51,012 bases of DNA from Escherichia phage tonn (NC_049815.1), one strand, 5' to 3'. Positions 677 to 51,012 are shown, counted from the stretch's first letter. The notes: generated from the sequence alone by a model not told the origin. Made by a program: numbers and translations.

Positions 677-1432
677 TTAACTGTTCCAATCTGGTATGGC
701 CCAACAACGACAACCGAAAGGCTCACCAGGAAAATCATGTTCAGAATCTAGCGCAATGCGCTTACCTTCCCATTGTACATGCTGCAATCGCTCTCTGTCA
801 TCAAGCATACCATGCCAAAAATAATGAGTTACTTTTGAATCATAAAGACGCTGGCGCATGAGTCTACTATTCCAAGCGCCTATGATGTTTTCCGCCCTTG
901 TCTTACCCCAAGAGCTATACACTGCGAACCTCTTACCAGCCAATTCATTAACCTGGCTATCTCTCATTCCGCGAAAGTTTGCCAATCTAATATTGGTTGA
1001 CCAGTCAGACACGATGTTTCCAAATAGCTTTTGAAGAGATGCGATCGTCATGTCATGCCATTGACCGTATAGCGTCCTATACCAACTCTCATTCGCATTG
1101 GCCCCAATAGCCATAAGGATGATAACGGCTGAATTTGACTTGCCTCCCGTTGATTTGGCTACGTTAATAAATTGCTTCGCGTTGAATTTATAAACAGCAA
1201 GACCGATAGCCGGAAGTGATGCGGCGATGCCAGCTATTAGCTTTAACGCGAAGCTACTAATCTCATCCTCTGCGGCGTTGATTTCTTCGGTGTCCGCGTC
1301 AAATTTCATTTCCTTTGTTTTGCTGCGCATCAGCACAACAAGATCCCTTATCGCCTCCTGAATTGAGCGGCGCAATTGCCGCTCGCTTGCTTCAGGAAAG
1401 CGCCATTGTTTAACGACGCCTTTCACTATCAT
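677..1432 (-). CDS. phage head morphogenesis / minor head protein (Mu F / SPP1 gp7-like)
   Basis: 251 aa; position right after portal with ATGA overlap; sequence character of Mu F-like minor head proteins (recognised by eye). Confidence 0.7.
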   Translation of the reverse strand: MIVKGVVKQWRFPEASERQLRRSIQEAIRDLVVLMRSKTKEMKFDADTEEINAAEDEISSFALKLIAGIAASLPAIGLAVYKFNAKQFINVAKSTGGKSNSAVIILMAIGANANESWYRTLYGQWHDMTIASLQKLFGNIVSDWSTNIRLANFRGMRDSQVNELAGKRFAVYSSWGKTRAENIIGAWNSRLMRQRLYDSKVTHYFWHGMLDDRERLQHVQWEGKRIALDSEHDFPGEPFGCRCWAIPDWNS

Positions 1433-2727
1433 TGATTGCTACCCTCTGTTGTTCCTGGCTCCGGCTCTACGTCTTGCTCAGGTAATTTAATGTCATTGCC
1501 GTCTTTTAGTTTAACGTTAGGCGCAATGGCTCGCAATGTGTCGCGCGCCTCTTCTGCATCCATGAATTGACCGTCAATAGCCTTACTCAAAGAATCAATG
1601 TTCTTGTTCAAGATTTCGGCCTGGTCCTTTTCGCTTGGAACGCTTAACGGCGCAAACTGAATGCTCCATTCTTCCTCTTGAATAAGGAACGGGATCAGAA
1701 ATTCAAGGATTGGTTTGTATTCTTCCTTTCGCTTTCGGTCGATCAGCTTGTAGAAGGTTTCAAGCGCCGTGTTTTGGCTCGCGCTAACACCGCCAACGTT
1801 CTTGTTTTTGAGGATGATTTCATGGATGCCGGAAAGAGATACAATGCGATCCATCTTCTTTTCCAAGAACGAATCGACGGCAGAAATATCAGAATTTAAA
1901 ACATCATATTCCTCATCTTCCGCATCAATGCCGATCGCACGGCCTACGCCACCCTCATCATCAACTTGAGCAAGTCGCAAACGTGCGGCACTAACACCAT
2001 CATCATCATCACAAAGATCAGCAAGACCTTTAACTTTCCATACCGCCTGTTGCTTACGTCGCAACAATTGAGTTGCTAAGTTTTCGCAGTAGTTATAATC
2101 ACAAATAGCCTCAACAAGTCTCTTATTCAGGATCGACTCACCCCACCCATCATTTGATTGACGCCGCTGATTTGGTAGCCGCTCACCGTCGATAATACAG
2201 ACTCGCGAATAGTGAACCTGGTATTCTGGCAAGTCGACACCAGGTGAAATGGTGTAAATTAATGGCTCACCATATCTTACCTTGCGTGGATTAGTTTCGC
2301 GCTTTTCTACCCTAACCTGAAAGCGATCGTAAACGCGAACATCTTCAAGGATTGCACCAGGCGCTACAGGTGACTTTAACGACCTGCCATCCTGGACGAT
2401 TGCCACGATTGCAGCGCCACCAAAAAGACGCGACCAGCAAAGCGCATCAATGATTTTATCGTTTAGTCGCTTCTCATCCCACAAAGATCTAAAACTTTCC
2501 TCATCTTCCACGCCATCAATATTAAATCCAGGCGTCACCATTTCTTCTGGAACAACGTCGATGATTCGTTTTGCTAGGCCGTCACGAATGTAAAAATCAG
2601 CGTGCGTGGTGTATTCGAACCCCTGCATAAAGAAAGGCAACTCTACACACCCATTGCCCTTACTACCCTTGAAAATCTCGTTGTATCCATCGGCCTTAAC
2701 TAGCCTTGTTTTTTCGCTCATCGTCAA
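1429..2727 (-). CDS. portal protein
   Basis: 432 aa, acidic C-terminus, located between terminase large subunit and head morphogenesis gene. Confidence 0.8.
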   Translation of the reverse strand: MTMSEKTRLVKADGYNEIFKGSKGNGCVELPFFMQGFEYTTHADFYIRDGLAKRIIDVVPEEMVTPGFNIDGVEDEESFRSLWDEKRLNDKIIDALCWSRLFGGAAIVAIVQDGRSLKSPVAPGAILEDVRVYDRFQVRVEKRETNPRKVRYGEPLIYTISPGVDLPEYQVHYSRVCIIDGERLPNQRRQSNDGWGESILNKRLVEAICDYNYCENLATQLLRRKQQAVWKVKGLADLCDDDDGVSAARLRLAQVDDEGGVGRAIGIDAEDEEYDVLNSDISAVDSFLEKKMDRIVSLSGIHEIILKNKNVGGVSASQNTALETFYKLIDRKRKEEYKPILEFLIPFLIQEEEWSIQFAPLSVPSEKDQAEILNKNIDSLSKAIDGQFMDAEEARDTLRAIAPNVKLKDGNDIKLPEQDVEPEPGTTEGSNQ

Positions 2728-2776: not shown

Positions 2777-2798
2777 TTTTAGCAATTAGTGCTATTTA
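2777..2798 (-). promoter_or_regulatory. variant copy of the 21-bp intergenic motif (AAATAGCACTAATTGCTAAAA), followed by TATAAT
   Basis: motif match; its TAG is the terL stop codon. Confidence 0.45.
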
Positions 2799-4360
2799 TT
2801 GCGTAGACCAGCCAGCTTTTTCATCCTTGCTACCGGATCATCTGCCAAGTTCATTTCGACGTTAACAGCATCAACTATATTATCGACAATATCATCATGG
2901 GGATGAGAATCGTCAAAAGTGAACGCTGCAACCTCTGCCATTATCTCAGGTAACATGGGATGACTTTCTGGCAGTGCCACACGTCCGGCCCTCATTACTG
3001 GCGCGGCGTCCATTGCTCGCGTTACCTTGTCATTGCTTCGCTGAACGGGATTTATATCAATCGGGATCTTCTTTTTGGCCCCCTGAATCAAACCCGTGCC
3101 GCTGGCCTTATCCTCAATGTGGATACGTCGCAAGCTGCCACACTCCTTATTGCGCTTCCAGCACTGATTAACGAAGGCAATAAAATTTAATTCAAGATCC
3201 GGCGCTTCCCACTTTCCGCGAATGCCATCAATGAAGTAAACGCGATTCTTATACATCCCCCAATAACAAAAAACTGAATAGTCGTTAAGCTCTCCGGCCT
3301 TCTGCGCGGTATCACCAGTAATAAATGTGTATTCAAAGCGATCCGGTTTAGGAAGTGCGCATTTTTCGCCGCTGCCGTAATACTGGAACCACTCTGTTTT
3401 AAACACGTTGCCGCCAAGCGCGATGGGTTGCTGTTGGTACTGACTGGCGAACGTATAAGGATCTGCATTGCGCAATGCAAGCAATTCCTCCGCGCTTTCC
3501 TTCGCAGGCCAAAATGAATAATGAGCAACGCCATCTATCATCACTGGCTTACTTGACAACACATCACGATCAAATTCAGGCTTCAACCAATCAGGAAGCG
3601 TTTCGCGGTATTCTTTCGTAACCAGCGCCGGAATACTCACAACTTTAAACTCAATACCACCCATCCCGCCATTAAGCATAAACCAGGTGGAATCATTAAC
3701 GTGTAGTCGCTGTTGCACCATAACAATCGGCGTAGTGTCTTTCATTCGACGCGATCGCACTGTGTTTTTTAACCGCATGTGGATCGCCTCACGCTTGACC
3801 TTAGAAAGCATATCATCCGGCTTGTCTGGATCGTCCAGAACCAGCATACCAGTAAAACCATCGTCCATATAGCCGCCACGCAAACCTGTTACCTGTCCGC
3901 CAATAGAACGTGAGTTAACTTGCAATTTAACCTTGCCGCCATCCGTAACTATGAGATCTTTTGCGCTCGCCTTTGCCAGTTTTCCTGGCCATAGCTCTTG
4001 CCACTCAGGAGAACCGATAATCTCCTTTATCCTGTTGCTGTTTTGCTGGACAAGTCCATCACTAAACGAAAGGTTAAGGTTTCTCACCTTCCGACTTTTC
4101 AATGACGCGTAGGGTGACATGTGGATCGAGAAAATCTCAGTCTTACCGCTACCTGGCGTAATGTTGAAAATCACATTCTGCGACTCTCCATTGATGATCT
4201 TCTCTACCTCACTGCACAATAAGCTAAAATGCCAGTTGCTCTGGAATTTTTGCCCCTGCAATAACTGAAACCAGATTCTGATCATCTTTTCGAATGAATG
4301 CTCACTGATTTCTTTAATGGCTCGCTTTTGCGCCGCCGTCAAATCTTCCCATATGATCAT
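2792..4360 (-). CDS. terL: terminase large subunit
   Basis: 522 aa; Walker A-like NITPGSGKTE near N-terminus, C-terminal RNaseH-like nuclease region with acidic residues; TAATG overlap with upstream terS. Confidence 0.9.
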   Translation of the reverse strand: MIIWEDLTAAQKRAIKEISEHSFEKMIRIWFQLLQGQKFQSNWHFSLLCSEVEKIINGESQNVIFNITPGSGKTEIFSIHMSPYASLKSRKVRNLNLSFSDGLVQQNSNRIKEIIGSPEWQELWPGKLAKASAKDLIVTDGGKVKLQVNSRSIGGQVTGLRGGYMDDGFTGMLVLDDPDKPDDMLSKVKREAIHMRLKNTVRSRRMKDTTPIVMVQQRLHVNDSTWFMLNGGMGGIEFKVVSIPALVTKEYRETLPDWLKPEFDRDVLSSKPVMIDGVAHYSFWPAKESAEELLALRNADPYTFASQYQQQPIALGGNVFKTEWFQYYGSGEKCALPKPDRFEYTFITGDTAQKAGELNDYSVFCYWGMYKNRVYFIDGIRGKWEAPDLELNFIAFVNQCWKRNKECGSLRRIHIEDKASGTGLIQGAKKKIPIDINPVQRSNDKVTRAMDAAPVMRAGRVALPESHPMLPEIMAEVAAFTFDDSHPHDDIVDNIVDAVNVEMNLADDPVARMKKLAGLRNK

Positions 4361-14219: not shown

Positions 14220-14485
14220 TGGCGGTGATTACCGAAAATGATTTGGATCTGGCGGAGGCGTTTTGCAGGGCCGCCAGGGCTAACCTGGATGTGACCACTA
14301 AATTTCTTCCGGCGCGACCACTCTTTTCGTGTGCGCCCGTGAATAAACCGACTCGCGTAATGATCGTGATTGAAGGTGATGGCCTGTACGCTGAAAAGAC
14401 GTTCCACATCAGCAACATTAAGGGCCGTGCTGATTTTATCAATGATGTTTGCTTATTGCAGGAGAAGAAAAAATGTTGGATGTGA
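14219..14485 (+). CDS. hypothetical protein
   Basis: 88 aa; TAATG coupling with upstream gene. Confidence 0.5.
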   Translation: MAVITENDLDLAEAFCRAARANLDVTTKFLPARPLFSCAPVNKPTRVMIVIEGDGLYAEKTFHISNIKGRADFINDVCLLQEKKKCWM

Positions 14486-35527: not shown

Positions 35528-35555
35528 AATTAAAGGGGGCTATGCCCCCTTTTTT
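35527..35555. terminator. bidirectional rho-independent terminator
   Basis: GGGGGC-tat-GCCCCC flanked by A-rich and T6. Confidence 0.6.
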
Positions 35556-39132: not shown

Positions 39133-39424
39133 GACTTTTAACCTTTTGTGCTGTTTCTTGGTTTGCACATTATAAATGCACAAAAAAACCAGCGCAATGC
39201 TGGTTAAATCTACTTTCCGTGGTTTATGTGGAATTTGTTTAAAACTTCAATCTCTATCATCTTTTCTGCCGCTTCCTGCCTCACTTCCTTTCTTTATCCT
39301 TCTTCCTACGTCTACAGCCCAAAATAACTTACCGTCATTATAATAAAAAATATCACGCCACATGATCACATCCTTAATTAATTGTAAAGCGAAAATCCGT
39401 TTTCGCTTTAACATATTGTGCTAT

Positions 39425-41494: not shown

Positions 41495-41556
41495 TTTCTA
41501 CCTCCTTTTTGCTCATTGTAACATCAAGAAAAAAGCCGCACAAAGGCGGCTTTAAA

Positions 41557-44591: not shown

Positions 44592-44630
44592 TTTAAAACC
44601 TCCAGATATTAAAAAAGCGCCTCGCGGCGC

Positions 44631-45265
44631 TTATGTTTTGTTTGAATGAATCATTTCTAGCGCCTTTTGTTCCATGATGCGCAAATCATTTAGCGCCATC
44701 TCCCGATCCTCAATCTTGTAAATGTCAAAAAGCATAGGCAAAACGTTATAGTCGAACCCATACACACTGCCGCTAGTCGATCTCCATTGCGTCTGCATAG
44801 CGCAAAACAGATCCCAAGATTGAAACATTGATTCATCAAAAATTACCTCCGGCGGCTCCTCCCCTTCGTAGTCTGAACGGGATAGGCCGACGGCCTCTAA
44901 TTGTGCGTCAGTTGGCGGCTTGAGGTAAAACAGGTAAACCGCCCGCTTTAGTTTTTTACCCGCTGCCCCGCAAGTGCTTTCATATAATGACCAGTCAGCG
45001 ATAATGACGCAGACGGGTAATAATCCAGCAATTTAGCAACGTTTTCCTCGTTAAATTCATCTTCCAGATCCCAACCGGAAGCAAGGAAGGTGATCATTTC
45101 TACGTCGCTCATCGGCTTTTCTGCCGTGTATCGTTCGTGAATTTCGCTTGCCTTCTTGTGGCGCACGGTAAAAACAATAACTTGCTCATCACCATTTGGA
45201 AGCACGAAAGAAACAGGCAGCTTAAAATCAGGCAGTGGGCCTAACGTTAGTTTCATCTTTGCCAT
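44631..45265 (-). CDS. tail assembly chaperone GT-like fusion made by -1 programmed frameshift
   Basis: -1 frame after A_AAA_AAC continues open for ~106 codons to stop at 44631 (manually translated ...KLKRAVYLFYLKPPTDAQLEAVGLSRSDYEGEEPPEVIFDESMFQSWD...). Confidence 0.5.
44948..45265 (-). CDS. tail assembly chaperone (lambda G-like)
   Basis: 105 aa ORF directly upstream of tape measure gene; ends at slippery site. Confidence 0.7.
   Translation of the reverse strand: MAKMKLTLGPLPDFKLPVSFVLPNGDEQVIVFTVRHKKASEIHERYTAEKPMSDVEMITFLASGWDLEDEFNEENVAKLLDYYPSASLSLTGHYMKALAGQRVKN
44951..44957 (-). other. slippery heptamer A AAA AAC (programmed -1 ribosomal frameshift site)
   Basis: codons GTA AAA AAC TAA at end of the G-like ORF; X_XXY_YYZ pattern. 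Confidence 0.55.
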
Positions 45266-45337: not shown

Positions 45338-45366
45338 GAAAAAAGGGGCGCAACGCCCCTTGTTTT
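45338..45366. terminator. rho-independent terminator immediately after major tail protein gene
   Basis: GGGGCG-caa-CGCCCC flanked by A7 and TTGTTTT. Confidence 0.6.
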
Positions 45367-48140: not shown

Positions 48141-48187
48141 TGTGTTTCCTCCAGATATGACAAAGGGCGCTTATAGCGCCCTCTTTA

Positions 48188-48460: not shown

Positions 48461-48474
48461 TTTATAACCTCCAA

Positions 48475-48503
48475 TAAAAAAGGGAATCCAGTTAAGGATT
48501 CCC
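48475..48503 (-). terminator. rho-independent terminator after major capsid gene
   Basis: GGGAATCC-agttaa-GGATTCCC followed by T6 on the - strand. Confidence 0.55.
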
Positions 48504-48516
48504 CAATGTTATACGA

Positions 48517-49491
48517 TTAACTTGATTTTTTCAAGCCAGTAATAAGCACTAGCGTAAACGGACGGTAAATCGTCAGGCCAGTACATTTTGAAGTGCAGGG
48601 AACTTTGAAATGCAGATCTTTTGGTTGCGCCGGAAGCATGTTAAATGCTTCTGGAATTTCGATCGACATGTTCATCGGGTCTTTCTCATATACCAGACAG
48701 CCTTTCGTTCCTGTGCCGTCAATATCCTCAAGCTCTGCGATCGAGTCAATGGCGATTCCGCTGTTTTGTTTCTGGAAGTATTCCAGATAACTTTCAGTGG
48801 TGTTTTCCATTCGAACGGAAAGAACCTTGCGCATAGACGGCGGAATCAGGATATTGGTTGCGCGGTGCTGACCATTGGTAATGGTCTGAATGGTTTCAAT
48901 AGCCTTTTCCAGTTCATCAGATGCCGCCTGTGGGAACTTGGTGTTTTCATCAGCGCTTAACCAGCCAGCTGACGTAATTTTTGTCAGGTTAGGATGTTCA
49001 AACACCGAAAGAATCTTATGCGGCTTTGAACCCTTAAACACCAGGCGGTTAACTTCCTGATCATGAGCGTTTTGCGCTGCGTTTGCCTTGCGAGTGGAAA
49101 GGCTCTTACCAGTACGCTGACCAGACTTGATTTCGTCAATTGAGATCAAGAACGCGTTACCCAAGCGGAAAACTTTACCGAATTCGCTAGACATCAGCGC
49201 GTCAACGGTCGGCAGGTCGTCGGTGTAATCAGCGATAATTTTTGCGTAACCAACTTTGTCAAACATCTGATATTCAAAAGTCTTATCAGTATCAGAAAGC
49301 TCATTAGTTACAGGGAATACACGAAGCGCAGAACCTGCCGGATATTCTTTCTCGTAAGCATCAGAGCGAATCTTATGCAGTTCTTTAGCGGCCCAAATAC
49401 CCATGTCGTACGCATCACCTTTAACGCCGCGAGTAGCCAGATAGCTAGAAACAATATCCGCATCTAGCTGATCAAATTTTTCTTTTTCCAT
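48517..49491 (-). CDS. major capsid protein
   Basis: 325 aa from ATG 49491 (GGAGGAAGAAA RBS); position after two small head genes; followed by terminator. Confidence 0.65.
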   Translation of the reverse strand: MEKEKFDQLDADIVSSYLATRGVKGDAYDMGIWAAKELHKIRSDAYEKEYPAGSALRVFPVTNELSDTDKTFEYQMFDKVGYAKIIADYTDDLPTVDALMSSEFGKVFRLGNAFLISIDEIKSGQRTGKSLSTRKANAAQNAHDQEVNRLVFKGSKPHKILSVFEHPNLTKITSAGWLSADENTKFPQAASDELEKAIETIQTITNGQHRATNILIPPSMRKVLSVRMENTTESYLEYFQKQNSGIAIDSIAELEDIDGTGTKGCLVYEKDPMNMSIEIPEAFNMLPAQPKDLHFKVPCTSKCTGLTIYRPFTLVLITGLKKSS

Positions 49492-49536
49492 TTTCTTCCT
49501 CCATATATAAAGGCTGTTAGTATGTAACGCCACAAT

Positions 49537-49555
49537 GATAGCATTTTTTGTTAAA
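49537..49555 (+). promoter_or_regulatory. degenerate 21-bp motif copy in antisense orientation upstream of major capsid gene
   Basis: GATAGCATTTTTTGTTAAA on + strand. Confidence 0.3.
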
Positions 49556-49574
49556 CGTGCAACATAATTTTGTG

Positions 49575-50021
49575 TTATGCGTTAATGCTTACCCCGACAA
49601 TATATGAATCATGATCAACCTTTACATGTTCGCCAGTAAAGATCCAACCAATCAGCAAGTCGCCTTCACTGTATGCTGCATCTCCATCTTGCGTTACAAA
49701 TACTTTGTCTCCATATTCTGGCGCTTCGCTCTCAGAAGTTAAGCACCACACAATACCTCGACTAACAACACTAACTGGATCGCCATCCTCATATATGCAC
49801 GAGCCCAGCGGCCTTACTGCCACGCCAATAACAAGATCCCCATTAATACTGGCTATTTTGTATCCATTTGTTATATGTGATAGTCGAACAATCTTACCTG
49901 GCGCAATAAATTCATCTCCGCACACGAAAGAACCGTTAATCACCATTATTGAAGAATCGACCATGCACCCTGGCGACTCAGCGCCAACAATGACTGAATA
50001 ATCACTCATAAGAAACTCCAA
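49575..50021 (-). CDS. head structural protein (paralog of 50056..50568; decoration-like?)
   Basis: shares GVAV, G.VW.L..E..AP.(F/Y)G.K and W(I)(A/F)TG blocks with upstream gene. Confidence 0.5.
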   Translation of the reverse strand: MEFLMSDYSVIVGAESPGCMVDSSIMVINGSFVCGDEFIAPGKIVRLSHITNGYKIASINGDLVIGVAVRPLGSCIYEDGDPVSVVSRGIVWCLTSESEAPEYGDKVFVTQDGDAAYSEGDLLIGWIFTGEHVKVDHDSYIVGVSINA

Positions 50022-50025
50022 ATAT

Positions 50026-50048
50026 AAAAAAGGCGCTCAGTGAGCGCC
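50026..50048 (-). terminator. terminator-like hairpin GGCGCTC-agt-GAGCGCC followed by T-run on - strand
   Basis: between the two paralogous head genes. Confidence 0.45.
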
Positions 50049-50055
50049 ATATTTA

Positions 50056-50568
50056 TTAACCTGCTGAAGATGCAGGAACTTTTTGCACCTGAACCTCTAC
50101 CAGCTTCAAGTCTTGAAACTTGGTAAAGTCACCAGTTGCGATCCAGTTTGTTTCGATAGTGCCAGACCCGGTATCAACCTGACCATCATCAGACAGTTTG
50201 ATTTTAGTGCCGAACGCTGGCGCGGTGGCGTCTTCAGCCAACATCCAAACACGCCCTTCAGTCATTACGTTGATTCCGCCGCCAGATTCATAAATCATTC
50301 GGCCGTCAGACGAAGTTGTCTGAAAGTGAGATCGAATTGCAACGCCGTAAGCCTTGCCGCTTGCCGCCATCGGCTTAATTAGCTTATTGCCCATAGCATC
50401 AACGCCGCCATGCTGGACTGCAACACCAACAAAAATGTTTTTGTTCTGGTTGCCTTGCGCATTCTCAAGAACACAAGCGCCATCAATATTATAAGCTGAA
50501 GTGTCAGAAACCTGACCAGGTAACGCACGAGACATTACAGCAAAATAACTTGCTCCAATTGTAGCCAT
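50056..50568 (-). CDS. head structural protein (paralog of 49575..50021)
   Basis: 170 aa; see paralog blocks above. Confidence 0.55.
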   Translation of the reverse strand: MATIGASYFAVMSRALPGQVSDTSAYNIDGACVLENAQGNQNKNIFVGVAVQHGGVDAMGNKLIKPMAASGKAYGVAIRSHFQTTSSDGRMIYESGGGINVMTEGRVWMLAEDATAPAFGTKIKLSDDGQVDTGSGTIETNWIATGDFTKFQDLKLVEVQVQKVPASSAG

Positions 50569-50580
50569 GTTTATTTCTCC

Positions 50581-51012
50581 TTATTTAAGTTTTTTCAAAC
50601 GCGCAGTCGGATCAAGGGAGTCGGTTTTTTCACTCTTGCCAGATTCGAAAGAATCGCCCTTAACAGATTTACGCTGCGCCGCCATTTTATCAGACTGCTT
50701 CGCAAGGTCAAAAGCTGTTTCAATATATGCATCGGCTTTTTCTGAAATATCGGCGCCGGTGACTTCTTTGACGTAAGCAACTTTGATCGCTTTGGCGTCC
50801 AAGCCGTCACACTTGATGCCAATTTCAGTTGCATCTGCAACCAGCTTGGCGTGTTCTTCTGCGTCAGTCTTTGCCTTCTTAACAGCTTCTGCAATCTGCT
50901 CCGGAATGCCATCGACTTTAGTTTTCAGGGCGTCGCGCTCGGCCTCAAGGCCATCAGCTTTTTCGGTTGCAGCTTTTGCATCTGCCTTTAACGCCTCAAT
51001 ATGATCAGCAAC
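50581..51012 (-). CDS. scaffold-like head protein, 3' part (ORF enters from beyond the window end)
   Basis: frame open from 51012 to stop at 50581 (144 codons); Ala/Lys/Glu/Asp-rich helical composition typical of scaffolding proteins. Confidence 0.5.
   Translation of the reverse strand, partial: VADHIEALKADAKAATEKADGLEAERDALKTKVDGIPEQIAEAVKKAKTDAEEHAKLVADATEIGIKCDGLDAKAIKVAYVKEVTGADISEKADAYIETAFDLAKQSDKMAAQRKSVKGDSFESGKSEKTDSLDPTARLKKLK

Follow-up and report, generated by a model that had tools for sequence, protein, structure and literature searches.

Among described systems, the phage T1 head (PDB 9KZJ; Chen et al., Viruses 2025, PMC11945409) comes closest to the locus treated here. The locus itself is a pair of tandem genes (49,575 to 50,568) upstream of the major capsid protein (MCP) gene in Escherichia phage tonn (NC_049815.1), whose entire 51,012-nucleotide sequence, hereafter the window, was analysed. 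The T1 shell is a T=7 lattice of 415 copies of the MCP gp47, cemented by 80 homotrimers of gp49 and 60 heterotrimers that each combine two gp49 with one gp48 (PMC11945409), and therefore carries 360 gp49 and 60 gp48 per head, a ratio of 6:1. The asymmetric unit of 9KZJ, with seven MCP chains and one gp48 chain, is consistent with 360:60. Both cement proteins possess beta-tulip folds; the N-terminal arm of gp49 reaches the inner surface of the shell, while gp48 is located on the outside only, with a poorly ordered C-terminal domain for which the authors suggest a role as an adsorption aid (PMC11945409). According to a figure legend of the same paper, heterotrimers make up two of the six trimers around a hexon (PMC11945409). 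By our own counting the T=7 hexon contacts comprise one strict threefold, three hexon-only quasi-threefold and two penton-adjacent sites; the heterotrimers would therefore represent the penton-adjacent class, a placement absent from the T1 paper. The GenBank record of T1 places a rho-independent terminator (14235..14267) between gene 49 and gene 48. The two-gene cement arrangement is thus already known from T1, the terminator from the record and the heterotrimer from the 2025 publication. The two tonn genes, here termed copy 1 and copy 2 in order of transcription, probably form a two-component cement system of the same type, with copy 1 as the bulk and copy 2 as the minor subunit and expression graded by the layout of the locus. 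To judge from the domain matches, the one real difference from the T1 pair is a minor copy lacking the outward-facing Ig-like (Big_2) domain.

Single-gene trimeric cements of the families PF22758 and PF23982 comprise E217 gp24, Pam3 gp6, XM1 gp53 and TW1 gp56. Their genes lie directly upstream of an HK97-fold MCP gene, as in the window, and both window copies score above the gathering thresholds of both families. For XM1, one cement gene and homotrimers only have been described, whereas the window has two paralogs and, by homology to T1, would have a mixed trimer at one class of sites. The gpD of lambda is a trimeric beta-tulip stabiliser as well, encoded by a single gene and found on a T=7 head at its threefold sites. 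Its family PF09956 (Phage_cement_2) is matched by copy 2 only below threshold (14.1 bits, cut-off 24, E=0.062) and not by copy 1. The herpesvirus triplex is a 1:2 heterotrimer of one Tri1 and two Tri2 that clamps three capsomers. It has no sequence relation to the present proteins, is heterotrimeric at all sites and is essential for assembly, in contrast to T1, where only the 60 penton-adjacent trimers are mixed. The T1 paper notes the similarity of the cement fold to the triplex and regards the folds of gp49 and gpD as analogous, gpD-type proteins occupying the outer surface only (PMC11945409).

All genes between 46000 and 51012 of the window are located on the minus strand. In the direction of transcription the 3' part of the protease/scaffold gene is followed by the 170-aa open reading frame (ORF), a hairpin with U-run, the second ORF, a spacer, the major capsid gene and a terminator-like hairpin:

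50581..51012, minus strand: prohead protease/scaffold gene, 3' part, counterpart of T1 gp50 (PHROG 36941 and 530, head maturation protease, 1e-60; T1-like gene order)
50056..50568, minus strand: predicted cement copy 1, 170 aa, ATG start (Pfam Phage_cement 7.6e-27; PDB 9KZJ/9KMG 2.4e-45; member of the copy-1 clade)
50026..50048, minus strand: intrinsic-terminator-like element (7-bp stem, 3-nt loop, U6; equivalent annotated in T1)
49575..50009, minus strand: predicted cement copy 2, 144 aa, positional counterpart of T1 gp48 (Pfam XM1_gp53 2.1e-25, Phage_cement 8.7e-14)
49535..49562, minus strand: promoter-like element TTGCAC-N16-TGcTATCAT upstream of the capsid gene, holding one genome-wide 18-nt repeat (49555..49538)
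49512..49531, minus strand: hairpin in the capsid-gene leader, shortly after the promoter-like element (paired changes among relatives)
48517..49491, minus strand: major capsid protein, 324 aa, HK97 fold (Pfam Major_capside 2.6e-54; PDB T1 MCP 1.5e-156)
48473..48504, minus strand: terminator-like hairpin (48504..48481) and T-run after the capsid gene (near-universal in relatives; annotated in T1)

Both ORFs are present on the minus strand where a preliminary description of this DNA had placed them (50056..50568, 170 aa from ATG; 49575..50021, 148 aa from TTG), and the gene downstream of the pair encodes the major capsid protein, as had been supposed there. The region shares 96-97% identity with coliphages of the genus Hanrivervirus (Drexlerviridae, Tempevirinae), and the source is a T1-like phage of this genus. 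T1 possesses the same order of protease, gp49-type gene, terminator, gp48-type gene, promoter-like element, MCP gene and terminator, and its MCP is 76% identical to that of the window. For comparison, 72 related loci were fetched and their cement-family and capsid ORFs mapped: 52 loci carry two tandem cement genes followed by the capsid gene, and 16 carry a single cement gene.

Copy 1 reaches 94.7 bits with PF22758 (Phage_cement) and 68.6 bits with PF23982 (XM1_gp53_minor_capsid), for a gathering cut-off of 27 bits. Its residues 1-162 match the 158-aa 'cement protein II / decoration protein' of PDB 9KZJ, 9KMG and 9KMH (E=2.4e-45). It is 54% identical to T1 gp49 over the full length, N-terminal arm included, and differs from it by six residues inserted near residues 36-41 and by a C-terminal tail that extends 7 residues past the end of gp49. 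The AAGGAG (50582..50577) that serves as its ribosome-binding site overlaps the protease stop codon. By these matches copy 1 is the ortholog of gp49, the major cement subunit.

The start of copy 2 is most likely the ATG at 50009 (144 aa), with GGAG at 50019..50016 upstream, because the TTG overlaps this ribosome-binding site and relatives annotate 435 nt. Copy 2 reaches 52.3 bits with PF22758 and 89.8 bits with PF23982, against the same cut-off of 27 bits. A phmmer search against the PDB retrieves two proteins, gp49 (3e-10) and gp48 (8.5e-9), the latter a 255-aa 'BIG2 domain-containing protein' matched over its N-terminal 145 residues. In a comparison of profiles the copy-2 family matches T1 gp48 with a probability of 99.6% (hhalign, E=4e-24), and copy 2 is ~43% identical to gp48 at the aligned positions of a global alignment of the shared domain. 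Copy 2 is the positional counterpart of gp48 and, on this comparison, appears orthologous to its N-terminal domain. Decoration, cement or auxiliary capsid proteins of differing stoichiometry had been anticipated for the pair, in line with the similarity of copy 1 to gp49 and of the copy-2 family to gp48, present in 360 and 60 copies in T1. The 6:1 ratio and the trimer positions are those of T1 and would apply to tonn by analogy.

T1 gp48 has 255 aa, with a proline-rich linker and an outward-projecting Big_2 domain (Pfam, 4.6e-7), whereas the 144-aa copy 2 possesses neither. A Pfam scan yields no Big_2 domain in copy 2, which stops at the end of the cement domain, and no remnant of this domain was found in the 83-nt spacer downstream. 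Copy-2 length is bimodal over the 52 two-copy loci, with 143-168 aa in 27 and 250-338 aa in 25. All long forms carry one type of C-terminal domain (ATDKTG.W ... W.ANDGSG), and in a 239-aa protein 50% identical to the window copy 2 the C-terminal domain scores weakly as Big_2. Short and long forms are intermixed in a neighbour-joining tree, with the short ones in several separate lineages; the simplest reading is that the Ig-like domain has been lost repeatedly, the window lineage included. At locus L028 (~3480-3630), a 164-aa copy 2 stops within a Pro/Glu-rich linker and is followed by an unusually long spacer of 150 nt, which looks like a recent truncation of the Ig-like domain. Shigella phage 2019SD1 (P0003, 'UNVERIFIED_ASMBLY') has a 176-aa copy-2 homolog in which the C-terminal half is repeated ahead of the N-terminal part, probably an assembly artefact.

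The two copies are paralogs, as proposed in the preliminary description: their pairwise alignment is significant (BLASTP, E=3e-13, 33% identity over 89 aa), both exceed the Pfam cut-offs, and both match PHROG 1989. Three sequence blocks had been named as shared, two of which are truly homologous; the third, 'GVAV' of the 170-aa protein (residues 48-51), is not at a homologous position, since the copy-2 GVAV pairs in the alignment with G75-V-A-I78 of copy 1. The tree, rooted on single-copy cement proteins, combines all copy-1 proteins of the 52 two-copy loci into one short-branched clade, with the copy-2 N-domains outside on long branches. Copies 1 and 2 of one genome never cluster together, and their identity within a genome is just 32-44%. 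This pattern fits one old tandem duplication, as had been suggested, and not repeated recent ones. Recent or independent duplication in each lineage is ruled out by the failure of same-genome copies to pair in the tree.

The hairpin between the genes, read as RNA, consists of GGCGCUC-ACU-GAGCGCC (50048..50032) and U6 (50031..50026), i.e. a stem of 7 bp with 6 G-C pairs and a 3-nt loop. Its fold has z = -2.8 against shuffles and its stem an energy of -11.6 kcal/mol; the hairpin with T-run reported earlier at 50026..50048 is real. It starts 7 nt past the copy-1 stop, and the U-run ends 16 nt ahead of the copy-2 ATG. The spacer (43-62 nt) of all 52 two-copy loci contains a GC-rich stem of 7-11 bp with a 3-7 nt loop, directly followed by a run of 6-8 U. 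There are 13 different stem arms among these loci, and stem energies vary from -11.6 to -18.9 kcal/mol, with the window stem the weakest. The T1 terminator stem is likewise unrelated in sequence to that of the window. An alignment-based search for covariation (MAFFT and RNAalifold, 16 distinct hairpins) found no consensus structure, the stems being unrelated in sequence. Because the stems do not align, a shuffle test and the count of distinct arms were used in place of covariation; dinucleotide-shuffled spacers contain a terminator-like motif in 2.7% of cases, against 52/52 of the real ones. An Rfam scan of the whole window gave no family at the gathering threshold.

Hairpin, T-run and ribosome-binding site fill the spacer, which leaves no room for a promoter, and any copy-2 transcript must therefore cross the hairpin. 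The earlier suggestion that the hairpin would lower the expression of copy 2 is well supported by its presence in every two-copy locus in contrast to the shuffled spacers, by the T1 annotation and by this lack of promoter room. Shine-Dalgarno pairing in the window amounts to -5.9 kcal/mol for copy 2 and -9.3 kcal/mol for both copy 1 and the capsid gene, and the Shine-Dalgarno sequence of copy 2 is weaker than that of copy 1 in 32 of 42 distinct loci. The late region of T1 has been described as a series of modules flanked by terminators (TLS paper, PMC11447400). Further strong terminator-like hairpins are located between structural genes of the window at 35532..35552, 39187..39205, 41532..41553, 44615..44632, 45343..45361 and 48164..48182 (minus strand), several of them after genes of abundant proteins such as the major tail protein, a pattern as annotated in T1.

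The capsid gene most likely starts at ATG 49491 (324 aa), with GGAGG upstream, and not at GTG 49533; residue 17 of the long capsid ORF is where the alignment with the solved T1 capsid protein begins (E 1.5e-156). A putative promoter, TTGCAC-N16-TGcTATCAT (49562..49535), is located in the 83-nt spacer that separates copy 2 from the capsid gene and resembles the extended -10 type. A standard promoter scan does not list this element, whose -35 hexamer matches at 3/6 positions only. The promoter-like core or 18-nt repeat is present in this spacer in all 52 two-copy loci, and 50 of them combine a -35-like TTGCAC, TTGACG or TTGAAC with a -10-like TATCAT, TATTAT or TATATT. The leader hairpin shows paired changes among relatives, e.g. 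GCCG/CGGC versus GCTG/CAGC. Located at the presumed beginning of the capsid transcript, it could make the 5' end of this mRNA more stable as well as stop read-through from upstream. In T1 and others it carries a T-run. The terminator after the capsid gene is found in nearly all relatives and is also annotated in T1.

Read together with the T1 head, this layout suggests the following arrangement. By homology to gp49, copy 1 would form trimers on an HK97-fold shell with T=7, at its threefold and quasi-threefold positions, and copy 2 would replace one of three subunits in the 60 penton-adjacent trimers, giving ~360 copy 1 and 60 copy 2 per head. With the outward Big_2 domain missing in the window lineage, the shell-binding module alone would remain. 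Copy 1 would be the last gene, after those of the portal, the head morphogenesis protein and the protease, in a transcription unit that ends at the intrinsic terminator. Copy 2 would be made from read-through transcripts only, because it is located directly behind this terminator without space for a promoter, and partial termination combined with its weaker ribosome-binding site would set the ratio of ~6:1. The promoter-like element would then restore high expression of the capsid gene, which ends at a terminator of its own. Partial termination, read-through as the determinant of the ratio, and persistence of the T1 arrangement with an Ig-less copy 2 are all inferred.

Several points weigh against a T1-type system in this form. 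A single-sequence phmmer search places copy 2 no nearer to gp48 than to gp49, and the neighbour-joining tree resolves the copy-2 proteins as a grade instead of one clean clade; the orthology of copy 2 with gp48 therefore rests on position and on the comparison of profiles. The AlphaFold2 model of copy 2, built on a 19-sequence alignment, has a mean predicted local distance difference test score (pLDDT) of 48 and is unusable. The homolog search for copy 2 gave close relatives only, 23 proteins, and its beta-tulip fold is assumed from homology to the solved chains 9KZJ and 9KMG only. The portal, of 12 copies per virion, is encoded upstream in the copy-1 unit, and translation must therefore have a strong share in setting copy numbers. 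The literature yielded no transcript, proteome or structure data on tonn or on any other phage whose copy 2 is short, so that presence in the virion and the 6:1 ratio are extrapolated from T1. Literature on 9KMG/9KMH, T1-like phage transcriptomics and Hanrivervirus virion proteomics provided nothing usable, and the TLS paper does not mention its own short copy 2.

Copy 2 might alternatively be a decaying remnant that lost its role with the Ig-like domain and is on its way to a pseudogene. It is observed to evolve faster than the other two head genes: across 17 representative phages identity averages 40% in copy 2, 62% in copy 1 and 81% in the capsid protein, copy 2 is less conserved than copy 1 in 136/136 pairs, and its C-terminal domain has been lost in several lineages. 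However, the ratio of nonsynonymous to synonymous substitutions (dN/dS) is 0.13-0.17 at dS ~0.5 within the genus, ORF and ribosome-binding site are intact in all 52 two-copy loci, family-invariant residues are retained, and short forms persist in several separate lineages. Copy 2 is under purifying selection and functional, and decay is highly improbable. A function outside the virion, as assembly scaffold or chaperone, is suggested by the label 'putative scaffolding protein' in the GenBank records of relatives, and low expression would suit a catalytic helper. These labels come without evidence, however, and copy 2 belongs to cement families whose T1 member in this position has been resolved in the structure of the mature capsid. 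A scaffold function is already supplied upstream by the protease/scaffold gene, and we consider a role of copy 2 outside the virion very unlikely.

Two further alternatives are both unlikely. The hairpin might be an element of RNA processing or stability, such as a stem that protects the 3' end following cleavage, or a modulator of copy-2 translation. Termination and 3'-end protection look alike at the level of sequence, the transcript upstream would be stabilised by the same stem, and the minimum-free-energy fold includes a weak outer helix toward the region of the ribosome-binding site. That site is nevertheless outside the conserved stem, the full intrinsic-terminator signature of stem, loop and U-run is present in every one of these hairpins, and the same signature follows other abundant structural genes. 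The other alternative concerns assembly: in phages with a short copy 2 the paralogs might not co-assemble, copy 2 forming homotrimers at some sites or being located elsewhere, e.g. at the portal vertex. Copy 2 is strongly diverged from T1 gp48. Against separate assembly, the window and T1 share a conserved gene order, terminator and promoter-like element, and both paralogs retain the trimer-forming C-terminal blocks (GRVW..L, W.(F/Y)TG).

The single-copy loci belong to Rtp, Rogue1, phiKP26 and relatives (Rogunavirinae, Drexlerviridae) and possess the same succession of cement gene, strong terminator, promoter-like sequence and MCP gene. Their gap between terminator and capsid gene is empty or filled with unrelated genes, in contrast to the window, where it holds copy 2. 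In 15 of the 16 loci the single cement gene is followed by the Rtp-like terminator CCTCC-TTCG-GGAGG with T7, and the 16th fails solely through an N in the stem. A promoter-like sequence, TTGCGT-N17-TATAAT with TG, is located after this terminator and is followed by the capsid gene or by inserted genes. In Rtp/Rogue1-like phages the latter encode GDSL/SGNH esterase-like proteins or collagen-repeat proteins with a CBM_5_12 module (L059:3062-4354, L064:3298-4341, L072:3073-4419, L066:3062-4507 and L067:3716-5233), and their products may be head-displayed accessories. As single-cement-gene relatives carry a terminator too, it evidently did not arise for the duplicate. The comparison identifies a conserved frame of cement gene, terminator, variable slot, promoter and capsid gene, the slot being mostly occupied by a cement paralog. 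We tentatively extend this to the family: it is possible, though short of probable, that the gap between terminator and promoter serves the whole family as a slot for sub-stoichiometric head accessories, with expression by read-through only. The paralog would face the penton in the vertex-adjacent trimers, its Ig-less versions would be retained, and in Rtp-like phages the slot would hold the esterase- and collagen-like genes.

The 18-nt repeat within the promoter-like element, TTTARCAAAAARTGCTAT, occurs in 20 copies in the window, against 0.49 expected. Copies start at 2778, 6966, 8281, 9601, 11051, 12043, 12506, 13868, 15173, 17090, 17764, 19926, 23170, 24241, 26730, 28292, 34289, 39407, 45280 and 49538. 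Its reverse complement has been reported from phage TLS as a 21-nt 'direct repeat', the function of which was left open there (PMC11447400). Fifteen of the 20 copies read ATAGCAC..TTGTTAAA along the local genes, opposite to the capsid-upstream copy. These begin at the stop codon of the upstream gene, followed by a GC-rich dyad of ~20 nt, a -10-like hexamer (TATAAT, CATAAT or TATAGT), a leader of ~35 nt and a ribosome-binding site. The pattern looks like a putative phage-specific class of promoters with an upstream box in place of the -35 hexamer. A plain sigma-70 promoter in all copies is rejected because of the opposite orientation of these 15.

The window seems to represent a complete phage genome; the record is linearised inside the prohead protease gene, with the 3' part at 50581..51012 and the 5' part at the window start (1..~680). 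The genes for the portal (1429..2727) and the large terminase (2792..4360) are both located on the minus strand near the window start. GenBank records of close relatives (including phage JLBYU09, locus L001; hits H5-H25) label copy 1 as 'putative zonula occludens toxin' and copy 2 as 'putative scaffolding protein' or 'hypothetical', and the head-tail connector gene of close relatives is labelled 'ribonucleoside-triphosphate reductase'. The toxin, scaffolding and reductase labels are in conflict with the family and structure matches. Nineteen 'Campylobacter phage' records (host Campylobacter jejuni; hits H28, H30 and H37 = MG065667, MG065671 and MG065657) carry a coliphage-type head module, in one case with a copy 2 ~90% identical at the protein level, and the attribution of these records to Campylobacter seems doubtful.

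The assignments given here correct the annotation across many coliphage genomes, and the toxin label matters for phages that are candidates for therapy. Beyond what is known from T1, the comparison adds that terminator and promoter-like element frame what would be a conserved low-expression slot across the family. It ties the 6:1 ratio of the solved capsid to a simple conserved layout of terminator, minor gene and promoter, a link that is directly testable. Retention of an Ig-less paralog under purifying selection argues for a structural role at the vertices, a role of the minor cement paralog that the T1 structural paper does not address. If the slot reading is true, the primary job of the paralog would be structural, fitting the cement lattice to the fivefold vertices, and the display of an adhesion domain would be secondary.

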